64,000 nucleotides of DNA, taken from NCBI GenBank assembly GCA_964600575.1, contig CAZRJH010000005.1, positions 8,040-72,039 on the forward strand. The letters run 5' to 3'. Position 1 is the stretch's first letter, and the number at the start of each line of letters is the position of its first letter. Below are positions 12,837 through 29,358 of this stretch, piece after piece. The notes beneath the pieces are model-generated. The model had not been told where the DNA came from. It made no database searches and was given only the letters and a program-made list of their open reading frames with translations. Origin of the DNA: an uncultured Gammaproteobacteria bacterium (GTDB taxonomy: Bacteria > Patescibacteriota > Microgenomatia > UBA8517). The translations under genes and the position numbers were made by a program.

Positions 12837-13907
12837 TTGCAAGTGGGGATATATACTTTGTATATGTTTAATTTCTTCTTAATTTTTTGGCTGGCTTTAC
12901 TCCCTCTTGTTAACTTTGATGGACACTTTGAAGAACCCAAAATTTTGATTTTCTTAATAGGAAACTTTTTACTTTTTATAAATTGGATAATTAAAGGCGG
13001 AACTCAAAAGTTATTTCTAAAAAAGTCCGACTATTTATATTTGATTTGGATTTTAGTTTTGGGAATTTCGAGCTTTGTTTCCGGGGATTTCGCCGCCGGT
13101 ATAACCGGCGGGGGCTATAGGCACCAGGGAATACTTTTTTTCTTTTCGCTTTGGATAATTGGGAAGACTGTTGAATCACTACCTTCTAACAAAAAGGATT
13201 TGTTGGGCAGGTTTATCTCGTATGTTGTTCTTTGCGAAGTCTTAATTGTTTTTGCTCAAATTGTTTCGGGGAAGGTCTATTTTGGCAGGCCTCTGGGAAC
13301 AATGGGAGATCCAAATGCGGTTGCCGGCGTTCTTTCGATTGGAATTTATTTCGTAGGTGAGTATTTACCTTCTATTTTTTCGCTTGGGGTCTTTGCGGCA
13401 ATAATTTTAACCTGGTCCAAATCCGGTATTTTGTCGGTGGTCACCTATTCGGCGGGATTGTTGCAAAAAAAATTTGGCAAAGCCCTTATTCTTGTTGCAA
13501 TTTCCTCGGCTGCTATTTGGGCTATGTTCTCATATGCAACCTCGGATAACACTTCATTCTTTGAAGATCGTAGGGTTATCTGGGATATTGCAATACAAGC
13601 AATTTCCCAAAAACCTCTTCTTGGTTGGGGCGTGGGGCAAACAGAGCAAATCTACATCAGTAGCTTTTATAAAAAGGGTATACCTTTAGAATCTTTGGAT
13701 ATAGATAGTGCCCACAACTTGTTATTGGATATTGTGCTGGCGTCCGGCATCATTGGGGCAGCTATTTTTGCATACTATATATACAGTCTCTTTTATGAAC
13801 TTAGTTTTGCTAAAAAAGTAGGTATTTGTTGTTTTTTGGTTTATTCGATGTTTCAACCATTAATGGTCTCACATTGGTTATTGGCAACAATTTTAATTTT
13901 CATTTGA
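12837..13907 (+). CDS. O-antigen ligase/polymerase-like (Wzy_C) membrane protein, second paralog
   Basis: Multi-TM protein; motif SAHNLLLDIVLASGIIGAAIFAYYI. Confidence 0.55.
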   Translation: MQVGIYTLYMFNFFLIFWLALLPLVNFDGHFEEPKILIFLIGNFLLFINWIIKGGTQKLFLKKSDYLYLIWILVLGISSFVSGDFAAGITGGGYRHQGILFFFSLWIIGKTVESLPSNKKDLLGRFISYVVLCEVLIVFAQIVSGKVYFGRPLGTMGDPNAVAGVLSIGIYFVGEYLPSIFSLGVFAAIILTWSKSGILSVVTYSAGLLQKKFGKALILVAISSAAIWAMFSYATSDNTSFFEDRRVIWDIAIQAISQKPLLGWGVGQTEQIYISSFYKKGIPLESLDIDSAHNLLLDIVLASGIIGAAIFAYYIYSLFYELSFAKKVGICCFLVYSMFQPLMVSHWLLATILIFI

Positions 13908-14966: not shown

Positions 14967-15010
14967 TTTCCGGAAGGCAAAACTTGTTGTTTTTGCTTGC
15001 CTTCCGGAAA
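14967..15010. terminator. bidirectional rho-independent terminator between gmd and the convergent small gene
   Basis: Perfect 14-bp stem tttccggaaggcaa / ttgccttccggaaa with T-rich flanks. Confidence 0.55.
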
Positions 15011-15082
15011 TTAGGGATTACTTTTTACCTGTTTTTGGTGTGGTACGCTGCCCCTGTTTGATCTTCTTTTTCTTGGACATTT

Positions 15083-15379
15083 TTACTCCACAAAATCAGC
15101 GTACTGATCTTCCGATTCCGAAGGAACAGCCTCTTCATCGGGTACCTGTAACCAGGAAAGTTGTCCGGTCGGAATTGCCTCGTGTTGCTTGCGCTCAGCC
15201 GGGTGAACCACGTCGTGCAGGCGGGTATGGTTCATCCAGGTATGAGGGTGACATCTGCGACAGGTGGGATTATCACCGGAATGTTTGGGTTCGCAGATAC
15301 AATTCGGGTGGCACTTCGGACATTTCTTATTTTTGCCCGAACCGACAGGGCGACATACACATTTGACTGAATCGGCCAT
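15083..15379 (-). CDS. Cys/His-rich small protein (four CxC/CxxC pairs) with acidic C-terminus
   Basis: 98 aa beginning MADSVKCVCRP..CPKCHPNCICEP..CRRCHPH. An AGGAG Shine-Dalgarno sits upstream, and local GC is higher than the flanking DNA. Confidence 0.45.
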   Translation of the reverse strand: MADSVKCVCRPVGSGKNKKCPKCHPNCICEPKHSGDNPTCRRCHPHTWMNHTRLHDVVHPAERKQHEAIPTGQLSWLQVPDEEAVPSESEDQYADFVE

Positions 15380-16748: not shown

Positions 16749-16818
16749 TTAAGCCGGGCACACTCCTTTGTAAATTCAAAAAAAAGGAGCGTACCCGTCT
16801 TTCTGATTCCAACCGGAA

Positions 16819-17322
16819 TCAATTATTGCGATAATTTCCGCCGGGGAAACCGCCGCCGCCAAGCATCTGGCTGATGACTAAGATTGCCGCAAGACTCGCG
16901 AGTGCGTGTCTGCCGCTACCTTGAATCAAAGCAATTTCTGACTTGGCCTCAAGGTAATCCTCGATATAAATATCTTTGGACTCCAAAAGCGCGGTGTTGA
17001 TATCGCCATTGGCTTCTACCTCGGTAACCAGTTGTGTCCACAAGTTGATAACTTGAGGAATCTCACTCTTGGTTGCCTCGACCAACGCTTCGATGCCATA
17101 GAATTTGGCGATGATGTCTTCTGCCTGAATTCCTTGATCGTAGCCTCGCAAACGAGTGGTCATTGCCATGTCTTTCTGCATACCGTTTTTGAAGGCAAGC
17201 GGTCGCTGGCAGGCTGGTCGGCAATTGCACGGCCGCCAAAGGTATCTCTCGCCGTTATAGGTGAACATTTCGCCTTGCGGGGGGAGCGCGAAGAGGTCAC
17301 CGTCCCAATCTAAAAGAGCCAT
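16819..17322 (-). CDS. hypothetical Cys-motif protein, paralog A (CxCxxxC-RP core, MTTRxRG, Gly-rich tail)
   Basis: 167 aa; clearly paralogous to 17478..17954 (shared W.DGD..ALP...Y.G..Y.W..C.C....RP..F, MTTR[LI]RG, EVE.NG, Gly-rich C-terminus). GC-rich codon usage and a strong GGAGG Shine-Dalgarno. Confidence 0.55.
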   Translation of the reverse strand: MALLDWDGDLFALPPQGEMFTYNGERYLWRPCNCRPACQRPLAFKNGMQKDMAMTTRLRGYDQGIQAEDIIAKFYGIEALVEATKSEIPQVINLWTQLVTEVEANGDINTALLESKDIYIEDYLEAKSEIALIQGSGRHALASLAAILVISQMLGGGGFPGGNYRNN

Positions 17323-17420
17323 ATCTACCTCCAGACATAATACGAATAGACAATACTGAGCGTGCAGTATAGCAAATTATATTAAATAAGTCAAATTATA
17401 GGATATATCTTAAATTGTGA

Positions 17421-17465
17421 AGAAAAATAGAGGCGTGCTCTTTCGAGATCTAAATGAAAGAGCAC
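17421..17465 (-). terminator. rho-independent terminator after paralog B
   Basis: 10-bp stem gtgctctttc/gaaagagcac followed on the minus strand by a T-run. Confidence 0.45.
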
Positions 17466-17477
17466 ACCTGCTTGGGT

Positions 17478-17954
17478 CTAGTTCAAAAGCGGGTCGCCGC
17501 CAAAAAGACCGTCTCCGCCTAAGCCGGAAAGCGGGATGATTATCATCGACCGCCGCATCTCGGCAAGCATCTCTTCCAGGTCGACCTTGGCTTCTTTGTA
17601 TTCCGCGACGGTAATGTCTCTGGAAGTCAGTTGCGCTTCGTTGAGTGTCCCGTTGGGTTCAACTTCTGCAACCAGGTCTTCCCAGGTGTTCAAAGGGTTT
17701 TCGCCGGATTCGATGCGATTGACGAATTCGTCCATACCGATGAACTTGACGATGACATTTTCGAACGGCGCACCTTGGTTAAGGCCGCGGATACGGGTTG
17801 TCATTGGCTGATCGTAGTCGCCCGCGAGGGTGAATACCGCGGGACGCCCGCATTCGCAGGGGCAGTCGATCCAGCGATAAGTATTGCCGCCATATTCGAA
17901 CGGCAAGTCCTTTGTGGGAAGAGCCGATGAATCGCCATTCCATTTTTGAGTCAT
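17478..17954 (-). CDS. hypothetical Cys-motif protein, paralog B
   Basis: 158 aa, same family as 16819..17322 (CPCECGRP). GC-rich, own GGAGG Shine-Dalgarno and terminator. Confidence 0.55.
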   Translation of the reverse strand: MTQKWNGDSSALPTKDLPFEYGGNTYRWIDCPCECGRPAVFTLAGDYDQPMTTRIRGLNQGAPFENVIVKFIGMDEFVNRIESGENPLNTWEDLVAEVEPNGTLNEAQLTSRDITVAEYKEAKVDLEEMLAEMRRSMIIIPLSGLGGDGLFGGDPLLN

Positions 17955-18084
17955 GTTTACCTCCGTAAACGGTTAAGATTGGGAATAAAGTGCGAAAGTC
18001 AATTTTATATTAACAGGCACAAAATGTCAAATTATAGGGTTAAATTGAATAAATTGGGTAATAAATAATGGATGTGTAATTAGA

Positions 18085-18140
18085 GGAAAAAGAGGAAAAA
18101 TGTAGCTTAGCAGGCAACTGTGTTCAAAAGTTGCCTGCTA
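18085..18140 (-). terminator. rho-independent terminator after the Ala/Lys-rich gene
   Basis: 12-bp stem tagcaggcaact/agttgcctgcta with a 9-nt loop; T-rich on minus downstream. Confidence 0.45.
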
Positions 18141-18172
18141 AGGCTGTGCTGTGGATCAGCAAGGAATGCTGT

Positions 18173-18538
18173 TTAGGCTTCGGGTTGTTCGGGTTTCTGA
18201 GTCTTGGGTTTGCGGGTGCGCTTCACGGAAGGATCGCGAGTAGGTACACTCGTAATGCCTGCCTTTTTGGCGGCTTCCTTGACCAGATTCAGGTTGACCT
18301 TGGCATCCCGTGCCCCAGCGAAAGCGTCGAGCGCACCCTTGAGGGCGGCCGCGAATTCGGCGTTGGCATCCTTGTTCTTGCGGTCGGCGTGGTAGAGGGC
18401 AAGGCGTGAAATCTCAGCGTAAGTGGGAAGACCCGCTTCGCGAAGAGCCGCGTCCAATACGACAACGTTGACCTTCTTGGCACCGGATTTCTCACGGAGA
18501 GTACCGATCCAGGCAGTGAAAGAAACAAAAGGATTCAT
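18173..18538 (-). CDS. hypothetical Ala/Lys-rich protein with basic C-terminal tail
   Basis: 121 aa ending KRTRKPKTQKPEQPEA; GC-rich (GCC/CTG codons); AAGGAG Shine-Dalgarno. Confidence 0.5.
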   Translation of the reverse strand: MNPFVSFTAWIGTLREKSGAKKVNVVVLDAALREAGLPTYAEISRLALYHADRKNKDANAEFAAALKGALDAFAGARDAKVNLNLVKEAAKKAGITSVPTRDPSVKRTRKPKTQKPEQPEA

Positions 18539-18785
18539 GTTGGCTCCTTGTCGAACTTTCTTGATTGAATAATTAAGTGCAAACTAACTACTGTCTTGCT
18601 TATTCAGCAATAGGGACATACTAACATATCCTGTAGTATTTGTCAAGTGTGACAACACTTTTTTGCACAGAATGGCGAAAATATAAAACAAATCTTAAGT
18701 TATGTCAAAAAATAGCCTCAAAATCGAAGATTTTTGTTGTGATACAATCTTTTTTGCTTGCACTTTGTTAGCTAAGGAGTAGCCA

Positions 18786-19163
18786 ATGGCCAAGAAAAAG
18801 AAGAAGGACCCAGGTCTTCCTAAGGGCCCCAAATGCGTCATATTTTTCAGAGGGGAGCTTATCAAAGGAATACGGGCTAAAGACGGATCTGTCTATTGCG
18901 AGGACGGCCACCGCTATCTTGCGGATGAAACGGGCCGGTACCACTATGCAGATGGAACCAAATCGCCGGACCTTATTTATACCATGGCTGATTTTGGCAG
19001 AATTGAATATCGCCCAGACGGCGTATACAGATGTCAGGAATCTGACGGTGTTCTGCGCATGGTTCGAATTCAAGCACTGCCTCGTTCGGTTGTTTCTTTG
19101 AGTCTGGACAATATTCATCGTTACGGGCGCTATCCTGCAAGTAGGACAAAAGTATCAAAATAG
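18786..19163 (+). CDS. hypothetical protein (Lys-rich N-terminus)
   Basis: 125 aa, AAGGAG Shine-Dalgarno 8 nt upstream, followed by a terminator. Confidence 0.5.
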   Translation: MAKKKKKDPGLPKGPKCVIFFRGELIKGIRAKDGSVYCEDGHRYLADETGRYHYADGTKSPDLIYTMADFGRIEYRPDGVYRCQESDGVLRMVRIQALPRSVVSLSLDNIHRYGRYPASRTKVSK

Positions 19164-19173
19164 TAAGCAAGTA

Positions 19174-19217
19174 TCCCGGAGGGAAACAAATAGCCCAGTT
19201 TTCCTCCGGATTTTTTT
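19174..19217 (+). terminator. rho-independent terminator
   Basis: ccggagg...cctccgg hairpin followed by a 7-T run. Confidence 0.5.
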
Positions 19218-19227
19218 GGAATGGAGG

Positions 19228-20855: not shown

Positions 20856-22001
20856 ATGCTGCCCGCAAAAGAAAAACCCGAAGAAGTAAAAGAAGCTAAA
20901 GTAACTGTAGACTCTAAAAAAGAAACAAAAGAACCCAAGGATATAAAAGAGGTTAAAGAGGTTAAAAAAGCCGAACCAAAAAGCAAGGTTAAACTTGCCA
21001 TAGATTACTCCGCTCTTAAAAAGTTTAGACTTGTTGTTGTTGCTTACTCCAGTATTCAGCGTGAACATTTTGCTACAAAAGATGCATACGAAGCAGAGAT
21101 AGAGGTTGAACAAAGAGCTATCGAGGTTTCGGAAGAGATACGAAAGTTGGGGGTTCCCGTGCGCACACTTCCCGGTGATCAATATTTTTACACCAACTTG
21201 TTAGTTGATAAACCCGATCTTGTGGTTAACTTGGTGGATACTATAAAAGGAAGAGATGTTCTTCAGACATCTGTTCCTGCTGCACTTGAGTTGGCAAACA
21301 TTCCATACACAGGTGCAGGAATGGAAGGTTTGGTTGTGGGTAATAACAGGAACTTAACCAAAAGACTTTTAATGGCATACGATGTTCCCACACCTCCTTT
21401 TCAGTTCATAAGACGCGGCGGAACAAATATAGACGAAGATTTGGGTGTTCCTTTGATAGTTAAACTAAACGAAGGCGGGGGAAGCGTGGGAATAAACAAC
21501 AATGCAGTAAAAGAAAGCGGTAGGGCCGCAAAACTTAGAGCTAACAGTTTAATCTCCACATATAAAGTCCCTATTATCGTAGAAAAATTTGTAGACGGAC
21601 CGGAAGTTACGGCGGTCGTCTTTGATGACGGCGTTAAGCGTCATGTGTTTATGGCACAAAAGAAGTTTGGTTTTAAACCCGACGGTAAACATGAGTTTAC
21701 TAGTATAGAATCCTACAGAAATTGGAAGTCTTATCGGTATGTTCCGGTTGACGAAAACAATAAATATGAAATTACAAAGCTTGCGGTCCGCGCTTTTGGC
21801 GGATTACAACATAAAGATTATGCAAAGTTCGATATTAGAATAGACGGTGACACGGGAATTCCATATTTTACTGACAGTAATCCTAATACAGCTTTTGGCC
21901 CTGACAAAGGTTTACCGATGACGGAAGTTTTGGGAATGAACGGCGTAGATTTTTCTGATGTTCTGGCTAGTCTTCTTTCTAAGTACGCCAAAGACCTCTA
22001 A
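20856..22001 (+). CDS. ATP-grasp enzyme, D-alanine--D-alanine ligase-like, with Lys/Glu-rich N-terminal extension
   Basis: LIVKLNEGGGSVGI, EVTAVVFDDG and KFDIRIDGDTGIPYFTDSNPNTAFGP resemble the Ddl family C-terminal half. Confidence 0.6.
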   Translation: MLPAKEKPEEVKEAKVTVDSKKETKEPKDIKEVKEVKKAEPKSKVKLAIDYSALKKFRLVVVAYSSIQREHFATKDAYEAEIEVEQRAIEVSEEIRKLGVPVRTLPGDQYFYTNLLVDKPDLVVNLVDTIKGRDVLQTSVPAALELANIPYTGAGMEGLVVGNNRNLTKRLLMAYDVPTPPFQFIRRGGTNIDEDLGVPLIVKLNEGGGSVGINNNAVKESGRAAKLRANSLISTYKVPIIVEKFVDGPEVTAVVFDDGVKRHVFMAQKKFGFKPDGKHEFTSIESYRNWKSYRYVPVDENNKYEITKLAVRAFGGLQHKDYAKFDIRIDGDTGIPYFTDSNPNTAFGPDKGLPMTEVLGMNGVDFSDVLASLLSKYAKDL

Positions 22002-26640: not shown

Positions 26641-29358
26641 ATGTCTTGGCTGGTGGTAAAATTAGCCACGATGACGGAAAGCGAAAGAAAGGTCCAAATG
26701 TCCTCGGCAGACCTTAAAAGGGAGTATCCCCACGTGATCTACGAACAGGTTTCCGACTCCACAGCCTATGAAGTTTTTGTGTCCGCCTCATACAACGCAA
26801 TGGCCGCTGCCGGTTACCAGATTGCAGTCGAGGTGGAAAGCAACGAAAGACAAGGAACTAGTACCTATACAATAAGAACCAAAGAGTCAGATAGACACGA
26901 GCAGGCTTTGCAAGGAACACTCTTTTTAGGTTTAACCGAGGCCACTAAAGCTGTCTTGCTAAATGGAAATAGTTATGACAATTTAGAAGTCGAAGCGGCT
27001 GGGGTTTCCGATAAGCTCTTGCACGATTTGGTTGACGACGAGGAAATGTTTAAAGCGTTTAGGGAGTATTACACGGGACTGCGGTGGAGTACAGATCAGG
27101 AGAAACTTGTCCGCGCGGTTTTTAGATACTCTACCGAGTATAACGAAAAAGATATAAAAGACAATTTAAACGGCGGCTTTTTGGGTAGTTTGGTTTTTGA
27201 TTTGGGACTCGATTCCAAGATACCCTACGAACAAAGAAAGAACTGGTACACAGCCGACCCCGAACAAATTTTGGCTCGGCACAAAGAAATAGACTACAAA
27301 CGACTTAAGGACGCGACTTTTGCAGAATCAGAGGAAGGAAAAAGATTAAAAGCCGCCTATGCAAGAGCAGTGGGGCAGGTCACAGGTGATGCTTATTACA
27401 GGGGCGAAAGAACCATAACAGGTAAAGGAGAGGTGCTGCCAAGGCCACAAATACCGCTTTTAAAAGTTCCAATAGTTGAAGCTCTAATGATAGATGAGGT
27501 TAGTTTGGATAGGCCAAAGGCCAAGTACAATATGGGTCCAAGTGATGTTGTCGGTCTTTTGGCATATTCAAGTAGCGAAAGGGCTCATACAGCACTGGTT
27601 AAAAGTATCAACACCAGGGTTCCCAAGGATGCAAGGCATGTGTTTGATGGACCAAGTGAGTTTCAACATAAGCTGGGAAACATTTGGGACATAATTAGAG
27701 CTTACACTGAATATAAATCTTACCCCGACAAAAGAAAACTCCTTGCGGCAGATCTTACGGCGATTCTTGATGCCTACTCAAATCAGGGTGAAATTGCAGA
27801 AAGCGTTCGCGAAGGGCATTTTGAATATGTAAGAGTACACGGACAAAAATATTTTGGAGAAGGAGTGCATACTGTTAAAGAAACCGTTATCGATTTGTTG
27901 CAAGTTGCCATCGCATCGTCCGACAGCTCCCTTACCGCCAAGGCCCAGGAAGTCATGCGAAGTTATATTGGGGGCGCCGGCGGTTTAGTGGTAGACAGAG
28001 ATCCTTTGGTGCTTTCCAGGGGCGAGCTGGTATTGATTGTTTTGGATTCAATAAAAAACTTTGACCCAACGGGCAACCCGACACTTTTAAAAAATATAGC
28101 TATTGAACTCCTGGGCGGAAAAGGCAAAAGCGTTGCTGACTTGGCAGCTCTTCATATGACGGCAGTTGGGCTTAGGCAAAAACCAAATGTTTCCTTGGCA
28201 CTTAAAGAGATGCGCAGACACAGTTTTCAAATAGACGGAAAATCAAAAGAGGCAGACGTTGCTAGGGAAAAGTTCAACCAACTTACAAAACGGTCGGATA
28301 ATATTTTCGATGATATTCGTACCCAAAAGAACAAAATTCTAATCGGTTTGATAGATGATTTAATGGGCGACGGCGAGGACCCTGATAGATTAATCGAGGG
28401 ACTTATTAACAGAGTCGAAATGCGAAGTCGTGAGATTTCGGAATTGCCATCGGAATATTATGAACTAATAAGAATAGCAAAATTGCTTGGGCCGGGAGAG
28501 CCTAGAGTGAATGTAATTGCCTGGCACATGCAGAAACAGTTTGAATACATGAGCAAAGAGTCGGCGCATCTTTTGGTTCCTGTTGTTATAGATTTATACG
28601 AGGTTATTTTAGGAGAACCCGGAAATGTAATTTTCCCTAACGACTCAACTTCGCACGGCCTTTCTGCGGTGAGCGGACTGGTAAGAAGGCAGGGTAGAGA
28701 GATCTTTAAATCGGCTTCCCCCGAAGATCTACAGGTTATTCAAAACTATGTTTTAGAAATTGCCGCTCACGCTCAAAGGATCACAAACGGAGAGCTTTTA
28801 CCCCAAGATCTCGGAGAAGAAGTAGATAAGGTTGAATATAAGAAGTGGCAGCAGGAAAAGATGCAACAAATTAAATATTCACTCCAGCAACTTCAGCAAG
28901 TTGGGGAATACTACAAGGAGTTTTTGCATATAGAAGCCGTAAAAGTAAGGCCCGATGTTTATTATCCTTGGATGCTTAAACAATTGGTGCCTTTTTACAG
29001 AGCAATGCAGTTTGAAGTTTCGGAAGGAAATCGGCCAAATCATGCAGTCAGAACTCTGCATCAAACACTGGCGGATTATATAAAGAACCGCTTGGTAATT
29101 AAGGAACAGTATCCCGAAAACTTTGATGTTATAAAAGACGGCAATCTGGATACTTTCCTTTACGAGATGTATAAACAAATGGTTGTACCCTACGAAATAA
29201 AAAACAACGGAGCTGTTTGGAAAGAGGGACTAACATTTATGCACTATGCAATTTCTGGCATGCCCGAGTCTGTGGTAAAAGAAATAGAGAAAAAATATCC
29301 AAACTCCGACTTTGCTAAGTTTGTAAGAAAAGAGCACGATAGACTTCAGGATAACTAG
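26641..29358 (+). CDS. large orphan protein (905 aa), function unknown
   Basis: Uninterrupted 2.7-kb ORF; no TM, signal peptide or known catalytic motif recognised. Confidence 0.55.
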   Translation: MSWLVVKLATMTESERKVQMSSADLKREYPHVIYEQVSDSTAYEVFVSASYNAMAAAGYQIAVEVESNERQGTSTYTIRTKESDRHEQALQGTLFLGLTEATKAVLLNGNSYDNLEVEAAGVSDKLLHDLVDDEEMFKAFREYYTGLRWSTDQEKLVRAVFRYSTEYNEKDIKDNLNGGFLGSLVFDLGLDSKIPYEQRKNWYTADPEQILARHKEIDYKRLKDATFAESEEGKRLKAAYARAVGQVTGDAYYRGERTITGKGEVLPRPQIPLLKVPIVEALMIDEVSLDRPKAKYNMGPSDVVGLLAYSSSERAHTALVKSINTRVPKDARHVFDGPSEFQHKLGNIWDIIRAYTEYKSYPDKRKLLAADLTAILDAYSNQGEIAESVREGHFEYVRVHGQKYFGEGVHTVKETVIDLLQVAIASSDSSLTAKAQEVMRSYIGGAGGLVVDRDPLVLSRGELVLIVLDSIKNFDPTGNPTLLKNIAIELLGGKGKSVADLAALHMTAVGLRQKPNVSLALKEMRRHSFQIDGKSKEADVAREKFNQLTKRSDNIFDDIRTQKNKILIGLIDDLMGDGEDPDRLIEGLINRVEMRSREISELPSEYYELIRIAKLLGPGEPRVNVIAWHMQKQFEYMSKESAHLLVPVVIDLYEVILGEPGNVIFPNDSTSHGLSAVSGLVRRQGREIFKSASPEDLQVIQNYVLEIAAHAQRITNGELLPQDLGEEVDKVEYKKWQQEKMQQIKYSLQQLQQVGEYYKEFLHIEAVKVRPDVYYPWMLKQLVPFYRAMQFEVSEGNRPNHAVRTLHQTLADYIKNRLVIKEQYPENFDVIKDGNLDTFLYEMYKQMVVPYEIKNNGAVWKEGLTFMHYAISGMPESVVKEIEKKYPNSDFAKFVRKEHDRLQDN

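Follow-up and report, generated by a model that had tools for sequence, protein, structure and literature searches.

Is a block of GC-rich genes in an otherwise low-GC genome a recent foreign arrival or something that its lineage has kept, and what might the encoded proteins do? The question is raised by a 64,000-nt stretch of contig CAZRJH010000005.1 from a bacterium that most likely belongs to the Patescibacteria (Microgenomates) (called the window throughout, at its full length), in which a first-pass annotation had singled out four small genes, here A, B, C and D, as a horizontally acquired cassette. Much of bacterial diversity falls within the Patescibacteria, in which roughly every second gene is without an assigned function. 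All four open reading frames (ORFs) are present as annotated (Table 1), including the Ala/Lys-rich protein with a basic tail (gene C), and a fifth small GC-rich cassette absent from that annotation, gene E, lies beyond the adjoining gene for a major facilitator superfamily (MFS) transporter. The corresponding loci of relatives are labelled L003, L005, L012 and so on. We show here that the array is old and fixed at one chromosomal site across long-diverged genomes, and that A and B belong to a rare protein family without known relatives. The novelty lies at the level of this family and of a fold without a known relative.

Genes A and B encode paralogs that are 40% identical over 137 residues (E-value 2e-31) and have in common the motifs by which they had been recognised. 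Word-indexed homolog searches returned almost nothing, essentially the query protein itself, and the family emerged only from an exhaustive HMMER profile search of 1.84 billion representatives at E-values of 1e-3 or lower. It comprises 50 representatives of 78-239 residues, none of which passes a Pfam threshold. Proteins A and B have no match in NCBIfam, PHROGs or PADLOC or among the sequences of the PDB, and the earlier impression that the paralogs match no known family has thus held against four profile libraries and the PDB sequences. Scans for related loci found a single 1-kb contig in JGI metagenomes and three loci in GTDB genomes. Among named genomes that hold family members, the nearest is that of Ca. 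Woesebacteria (CP066686), and the family is probably specific to one lineage of Microgenomates/Woesebacteria-like Patescibacteria.

The structure of protein A was predicted by AlphaFold2 with the family alignment, and the predicted local distance difference test score (pLDDT) of the whole protein was 89; residues 1-118 scored 95.7, with a predicted template modelling score of 0.86. In the model, a three-stranded sheet (residues 20-45) carries C32, C34 and C38 and is followed by five short helices, a long helix (residues 120-154) and a low-confidence tail. Expressed as parts, protein A consists of an N-terminal domain with the three cysteines, a helical domain, a hydrophobic helix and the tail GGGGFPGGNYRNN. 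Pairwise identity in the family is 41% over residues 4-64 and 17-18% over the remainder. These three are the only cysteines conserved in at least 90% of members, and there is no conserved fourth Cys, nor any Ser or His in an invariant or near-invariant column. The three near-invariant cysteines of the N-terminal 64-residue beta domain probably form a metal site. One diverged member, a protein of 159 residues in L020 (1384-1863, E-value 2e-16), has lost all three cysteines and is still found in an array, with a GC content at third codon positions (GC3) of 0.61. Since this confident model has no significant match to any solved structure and likewise meets no curated-family threshold, the fold is probably new. 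The members have no signal peptide and are mostly acidic (median isoelectric point (pI) 4.8). A transmembrane anchor was considered and rejected, the C-terminal hydrophobic stretch being too short or too amphipathic in most members, and matches to a Death-like or EAD six-helix bundle stay below any accepted threshold.

The closest approach to a known family is DUF6527 (PF20137), which includes BubE, a zinc-finger serine protease of the ubiquitination-like Bub operons with a hydrophobic terminal extension, a C4 zinc finger and a Ser-His dyad (PMC11601596). Both have a CxCxC-type cysteine cluster on a beta hairpin, and at least six family members give PF20137 matches located exactly at CxCxC; these score about 12-18 bits against a cut-off of 23.6 and span 15-27 of the 63 profile positions. 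In contrast to DUF6527, the family has no fourth Cys and no invariant Ser-His dyad, its fold is alpha+beta instead of an eight-stranded beta sandwich, and no E1, E2 or ubiquitin-like domains are found among the neighbours in the window and the related loci. We therefore rejected membership, as the matches are below threshold and the C4 finger, the dyad, the fold and the operon partners are lacking.

That the array is no newcomer is shown by its position in relatives. The order nucleotidyltransferase, D, optionally C, one to six family paralogs, MFS transporter, E, GDP-mannose dehydratase (GMD), Wzy and beta-helix protein is found in L012, L003 (one and the same place as L004 and L007), L005 and L006, together with the more distant L020 and L019, whose MFS proteins are 45-48% identical. 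At least seven loci from metagenomes have the array in this position, flanked by the nucleotidyltransferase and MFS genes. Proteins around the array are 95% (GMD), 93% (ATP-grasp), 89% (C39-like peptidase), 80% (MFS), 76% (the methyltransferase-like protein of 370 residues) and 73% (nucleotidyltransferase) identical between the window and L012. Identity is 70% for D, 67% for E, 46% for C and 43% for the best match of A or B. Gene C has homologs at the same position in L012 (GC3 0.71) and, at 48% identity, in L006; D is 35% identical to its counterpart in L003; and E is kept between the MFS and GMD genes in L005 and L006 at about 36% identity. Synonymous sites are saturated among these genomes, with a synonymous divergence (dS) of at least 1. 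Nonsynonymous divergence (dN) is 0.18-0.64 in family genes compared with 0.035-0.05 in the genes for the ATPase (described below), GMD and ATP-grasp, with a dN/dS ratio of about 0.2-0.3. Fast protein evolution is evident from these values, while positive selection is not demonstrable because dS is saturated and the ratio is about 0.2-0.3.

Two side observations concern these loci. A three-gene insertion in L003 (5197-8321) with GC3 of 0.51-0.55, encoding an Rce1-like CPBP protease, a MoxR-type AAA ATPase and a protein of 357 residues, lies between the methyltransferase-like and nucleotidyltransferase genes and is absent from the window. The metagenome-assembled genomes of L012 (CAZRGC010000002.1) and L013 (CAZBTH010000015.1) are both titled 'uncultured Gammaproteobacteria'; L012 shares the gene order of the window with flank proteins 73-95% identical, the ATPase of L013 is 95% identical to that of CP066686, and the two genomes are probably mislabelled.

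The GC richness noted earlier is genuine, and the profile was not uniform once GC, GC3 and codon usage had been computed. Gene GC is 0.51 for A, 0.54 for B, 0.57 for C and 0.48 for D, against a window mean of about 0.41, and GC3 is 0.57, 0.64, 0.61 and 0.45, respectively, and 0.52 for E, against a mean of 0.39 (standard deviation (sd) 0.06). In the frequency of C at third positions (C3), A, B and C are the top three of the 74 ORFs in the window, with 0.36-0.41 compared with 0.21 (sd 0.054); the value is 0.36 for A, and that of B, 0.41, is the maximum of the window. A preference for GCC, CTG and GGC had been proposed. This is correct for GGC (share of 0.55 versus 0.21 in the background) and GCC (0.40 versus 0.28), but CTG rises only modestly, from 0.07 to 0.14, and the strongest shift is towards C-ending codons in general, such as TTC (0.87 versus 0.20), ATC (0.64 versus 0.18) and CGC (0.42 versus 0.10), with GTC at 0.50 in the array genes. 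The codons AGA, AGG, ATA, CTA, GGA, TTA and ACA are nearly missing from A, B and C (0-4% versus 10-15%), and gene C is without rare codons. The bias is not peculiar to the window: in all 20 array genes of the seven loci GC3 is 0.51-0.70 (mean C3 0.37), which does not overlap with the range of 0.26-0.45 (mean C3 0.18) in 19 conserved flank genes. As the bias persists across genomes in which dS is saturated, it is maintained in the family and is not inherited from a recent donor.

What maintains the bias is suggested in part by the translation genes of the window (ribosomal proteins, NusG and Tsf), which shift partly in the same direction, with C preferred over T (r 0.39, P 0.002) and shares of 0.44 for TTC, 0.34 for ATC and 0.23 for CGC. 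Translational selection alone was rejected as the cause because these genes keep A-ending codons that the array avoids, and GC-biased gene conversion is unlikely because the rise is mainly in C3 (+0.19), with little in third-position G (+0.04). We read the bias as expression-linked selection plus an unexplained compositional component.

A recently acquired foreign cassette, coming from a donor of higher GC and not yet ameliorated, would account for the aberrant GC and codon usage, including the observation that array genes lie above even the translation genes of the host in G-ending codons and below them in A-ending ones. It would also fit the autonomy of the cassettes and the presence of the family at a second genomic location. 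We nevertheless consider it very improbable, and the comparative loci have already largely refuted it: the insertion site is one and the same in seven loci, dS is saturated, the identity of the MFS protein falls to 45%, and the codon bias is found in every array. The shared site, the saturated dS and the non-overlapping GC3 ranges together decisively contradict a recent island. As the first-pass annotation had already observed, no integrase or transposase is encoded, and we found none among the ORFs of 14.9-25 kb. Neither direct repeats nor a tRNA gene flank the array (the nearest tRNA gene is 15 kb away), and no homolog was found in the viral-contig collection or, by tblastn, in the phage and plasmid collections. 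An integron-type cassette array was rejected as well, as an integrase is lacking and the cassettes each carry a promoter. Here a GC-rich 'island' stands out from a low-GC genome and yet is no recent foreign arrival, which calls for caution when horizontal transfer is called from composition.

The array is built of tandem self-contained cassettes, each with a consensus promoter, a GGAGG site, an ORF and a stable 3' hairpin (Table 1). Every start codon is preceded by GGAGG or AAGGAG, and A, B and C have upstream sigma-70-like promoter-like sites that agree with the consensus at 10-11 of 12 positions. The region before C is nearly identical upstream of the C homolog in L012. The 13-mer CCTATAATTTGAC has two exact copies in the window, one before A and one before B; with two mismatches allowed its count is not above chance, and it is the placement that is informative. 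The element CCYATAAT-N0-3-TTGACT precedes most array genes in L003, L005, L006 and L012, with a -10 box about 17 nt further on.

Table 1. Genes, promoter-like sites and hairpins of the array (positions in the window; aa, amino acids)
Feature	Position	Strand	Details
Gene A	16819-17322	(-)	ORF of 167 aa; family profile E-value 8e-46
Gene B	17478-17954	(-)	ORF of 158 aa; paralog of A
Gene C	18173-18538	(-)	ORF of 121 aa; pI 10, Ala/Lys-rich, Lys/Arg/Pro tail
Gene D	18786-19163	(+)	ORF of 125 aa; basic, Lys-rich N-terminus, divergent from C
Gene E	15083-15379	(-)	ORF of 98 aa; Cys/His-rich, acidic tail; beyond MFS gene
Promoter of A	17366..17402	(-)	CCTATAAT abutting TTGACT, 17 nt, TATACT (with TG)
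Promoter of B	18002..18038	(-)	CCTATAAT abutting TTGACA, 17 nt, TAAAAT
Two promoter-like sites before C	18618..18708	(-)	TTGACA-17-TAGTAT with TG; TTGACA-17-TATATT
Promoter of E	15467-15440	(-)	
3' hairpin of A	16755..16797	(-)	15-bp stem, loop UUUUUUUUGAAUUUAC; -25.2 kcal/mol, z -5.9; between convergent A and MFS genes
3' hairpin of B	17429..17472	(-)	-23.9 kcal/mol, z -6.5; followed by T-run; repeat I20
3' hairpin of C	18104..18145	(-)	Loop with UUUUGAAC, followed by T-run; -23.7 kcal/mol, z -5.4; repeat I14
Hairpin between convergent D and nucleotidyltransferase genes	19176..19209	(+)	-20.4 kcal/mol, z -4.2
Hairpin after E and the 20-aa ORF	14967..15010	(-)	-22.6 kcal/mol, z -6.1; shared with convergent GMD; repeat I9

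The Shine-Dalgarno sequence that had been ascribed to each of the four genes is borne out, and in place of the proposed terminators each gene is followed by a hairpin, with folding energies of -20 to -25 kcal/mol and z-scores of -4.2 to -6.5. Only three hairpins with stems of at least 13 bp occur in the 64-kb window, and all of them flank these small genes. The stems of the array hairpins share the consensus (A/G)GGTGTACTCCTTC ... GAAGGAGTACACC and the loops the motif TTTTGAA(G/A)AC, and this consensus holds in L003, L005, L006 and L016 and in the hairpin of A in the window. A shared stem consensus and the TTTTGAA loop were also noted for hairpins downstream of family genes in L003, L005, L006, L012 and L016, and for those of the window at 16755-16797 and 18104-18145. 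Conservation is higher in the 3' hairpins than in the coding regions. Many hairpins are without a T-run; they may serve mRNA stabilisation instead of, or besides, termination. Their conservation could come from function, from conversion between cassettes or from duplication of whole units. At the gathering thresholds of Rfam, the only matches in the window are tRNA genes; relaxing the E-value added a single miRNA-like match, on the hairpin of C, which we put down to chance. Beside gene E, a Lys-rich ORF of 20 residues (MSKKKKIKQGQRTTPKTGKK) starts 2 nt after the end of E, the two together spanning 15018-15379 (-). A 20-nt inverted repeat (15062-15081 and 18785-18804, 95% complementary) lies at the starts of this ORF (MSKKKK...) and of D (MAKKKKK...), and may reflect just their Lys codons.

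The Gly-rich tails described in the first-pass annotation are genuine and are predicted to be disordered (pLDDT 58-63). An Asn-ended Gly-rich tail is found in about 40% of the members, including A and B, and about half of the family is without a tail; tail-less members end in the hydrophobic helix, and tailed and tail-less members occur together in single arrays. Where present, the tail follows the hydrophobic helix, is preceded by GG motifs, and is otherwise hypervariable and rich in Gly, Ser, Pro and Asn. Its only invariant residue is the terminal Asn, which is the last residue of 20 of the 50 representatives against an overall Asn frequency of 4.9% (P 9e-14). Protein A ends in ...NYRNN and protein B, with the tail GLGGDGLFGGDPLLN, in ...PLLN. 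Two sub-types can be told apart, namely ...LN, in B and P0003-P0005, and [F/W/Y]-x-x-N, in the MPK.NP group and, as NYRNN, in A. The tails had been proposed, speculatively, to be targeting or cargo peptides. This idea was not borne out, as no HK97-fold encapsulin shell domain is found among the scanned neighbours in the window or the related loci; the idea is better founded if the tail with its terminal Asn is taken as a signal for recognition or processing. Enzymatic processing, more typically than a secretion signal, involves a single invariant residue at the terminus.

To understand what the proteins may do, it is helpful to look at the second context in which the family occurs. The arrays recur between the nucleotidyltransferase and MFS genes, and four further loci (L011, L013, L014 and L018) have a family gene followed, 0.1-3 kb downstream, by a gene for a VirD4/TraG-like ATPase, which matches DUF87, TrwB_AAD_bind and TraG-D_C above the Pfam cut-offs. 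The ATPases are 73-95% identical to one another, whereas the adjoining family genes are just 36-74% identical. In L010, L016 and L018 the family gene is followed by a gene for a homologous protein of 80 residues with a hydrophobic N-terminus. Locus L014 is the terminal 18 kb of a Ca. Woesebacteria chromosome that is complete. In Patescibacteria, the clusters for type IV secretion frequently lie close to dnaA and have no relaxase, and their co-option for other functions has been suggested (PMC12102498).

We tentatively, and with low confidence, favour the possibility that the proteins are polymorphic substrates or adaptors of the VirD4/TraG-like ATPase. This reading is ranked first since the conserved N-terminal domain suggests a conserved partner and the ATPase is the only recurrent neighbour that is not a housekeeping gene. 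The conserved N-terminal domain would dock on the conserved machinery (the VirD4/TraG-type coupling ATPase), with payload or specificity provided by the variable helical domain and the Asn-terminated tail serving as the C-terminal signal to be recognised. Strong expression of the array would then yield a polymorphic range of substrates or adaptors for dealings with host or competitor cells. Type IV substrates with their C-terminal signals, and small acidic coupling-protein adaptors such as IcmS and IcmW, offer a comparison. Like these, the family members are small, acidic and cytoplasmic; their C-terminal tail is unstructured and bears a hydrophobic residue a few places short of its end, and their genes lie beside a VirD4/TraG-like ATPase in the four loci. 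Another comparison is provided by the tandem arrays of highly variable VirB2-like genes in Microgenomatia (PMC12102498). Both kinds of array consist of tandem, small and very divergent paralogs in Microgenomatia, are chromosomal and have a genetic tie to components of type IV secretion. Unlike the VirB2-like proteins, the family has neither a signal peptide nor a pilin-like transmembrane hairpin but an acidic alpha+beta, three-cysteine domain, and no similarity to VirB2 in sequence or fold was detected.

Several observations weigh against an assignment to the coupling ATPase. There is no coupling ATPase beside the array of the window, nor in the whole 64 kb. Since the four loci with the ATPase belong to rather closely related genomes, they may equal one or two independent observations. 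The codon bias follows that of the translation genes only partly, as AGA and ACA, avoided in the array, are retained in the latter. Known type IV signals have a loose definition, and one invariant terminal residue points more towards enzymatic chemistry. In structure, the family was not found to resemble the known type IV adaptors or effectors. Moreover, virB4 does not adjoin the majority of VirD4-like genes in Patescibacteria, and the VirD4-like gene of Ca. S. epibionticum is not essential for epibiotic growth (PMC12102498).

An alternative that we rank second, and regard as rather unlikely, is that the tailed members such as A and B are precursors or carriers in a pathway resembling that of microcin C, of RiPPs (peptides made by the ribosome and modified after translation) or of the carriers Pup and LysW. 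The C39-like Cys peptidase would cut the tail after Gly-Gly, and/or the ATP-grasp enzyme would activate the Asn carboxylate as an acyl-phosphate that goes on to a succinimide, and the S-adenosylmethionine-dependent methyltransferase-like protein, the nucleotidyltransferase and the MFS exporter would complete the pathway. The possibility stays alive because an invariant terminal Asn is more typical of enzymatic processing; as the sole invariant residue of a flexible tail it recalls the microcin C precursor MccA (PMC6495379). The GG motifs before the tails are in keeping with this chemistry, and genes for an MFS exporter, an ATP-dependent ligase-type enzyme and a methyltransferase-like protein lie nearby, as in the systems named. 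All five candidates (C39-like, ATP-grasp, methyltransferase-like, nucleotidyltransferase and MFS) flank the array in the window and L012, with subsets in L003, L005 and L020. As in microcin C-type systems, there are several precursor-like genes, and a strong promoter and a hairpin directly after a small gene are typical of precursor genes. On the other hand, about half of the family, including members of the same arrays, is tail-less, and the conserved part is not a leader peptide but a predicted folded domain of 118 residues in proteins of 130-170 residues, compared with 7-56 residues for MccA. No ThiF-type match, and hence no MccB-like gene, is found among the scanned neighbours at 9.5-25 kb. 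The Asn-tailed member P0024 adjoins a VirD4-like ATPase gene, and none of the pathway enzymes is on its 3.7-kb contig. The flanks can also be read as ordinary envelope-glycan genes (GMD and Wzy), and their synteny may be simply inherited. RiPP precursors of the NHLP/Nif11 type were rejected, as there is no NCBIfam match, the C39-like protein has no ABC domain, and family genes also occur without these enzymes on the contig. In its most specific form, the tail would be a chemical handle: ATP-grasp would activate the carboxylate, and the Asn side chain would close into a succinimide, as happens when microcin C is made. A nucleotide, a small molecule or another protein would then be attached to the protein, or to its tail once the C39-like peptidase had set it free. 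We think this decidedly improbable, and our searches found no directly relevant literature on C-terminal Asn with ATP-grasp enzymes. If true, ultrasmall bacteria would possess a pathway for C-terminal tagging or peptide conjugation that was not known before, and the tandem paralogs would be its alternative tags or precursors.

It is also conceivable, and in our view again rather unlikely, that the proteins act inside the cell and independently of secretion, as abundant structural, regulatory or conflict proteins (immunity, anti-defence or adaptor) that diversify because their partners do, with the codon bias coming from very high expression. The lack of a signal peptide and the acidity of the members agree with this, as do expression signals equal to the strongest in the window, a preference for C-ending codons in the same direction as that of the translation genes, and the tandem, fast-evolving paralogs. 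No PADLOC or PHROG match was obtained, however, no toxin or defence gene was found adjoining the array, and the Death-like matches do not reach an accepted threshold. An intracellular role would leave the invariant terminal Asn and the repeated adjacency to the ATPase unexplained. No directly relevant literature on abundant hypothetical proteins in these bacteria was found. 

As to the coupling ATPase, the role of the relaxase-less type IV secretion genes of Patescibacteria is an open question in the literature (PMC12102498), and the family is a concrete candidate for that question, being small, confidently modelled, probably strongly expressed, fast-evolving and located beside a coupling ATPase. 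It offers two testable handles, the three-cysteine site and the invariant C-terminal Asn.

The window is chromosomal, as it carries genes for L10, L1, L11, NusG, S2, MreB, a penicillin-binding protein and topoisomerase I as well as tRNA genes. Around the array are genes for GMD, Wzy-like proteins, a beta-helix protein, the MFS transporter, an RfaE-II/TagD-like nucleotidyltransferase, the methyltransferase-like protein, a diverged Ddl-like ATP-grasp protein and the C39-like peptidase, a stand-alone protein of 233 residues without an ABC domain. The ATP-grasp gene (20856-22001 (+)) encodes a Lys/Glu-rich N-terminal extension of about 90 residues; its product scores 91 bits against the D-Ala-D-Ala ligase cut-off of 243, yet it keeps 87-93% identity between genomes whose dS is saturated. 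Another ATP-grasp gene, RimK-like, is at 130-843, and an ORF of 905 residues without a Pfam match is at 26641-29358 (+). The Wzy-like gene of the O-antigen-ligase family at 12837-13907 (+) encodes a protein 45% identical to its counterpart in L012, next to a GMD that is 95% identical, and is thus a second fast-diverging gene in a conserved frame.

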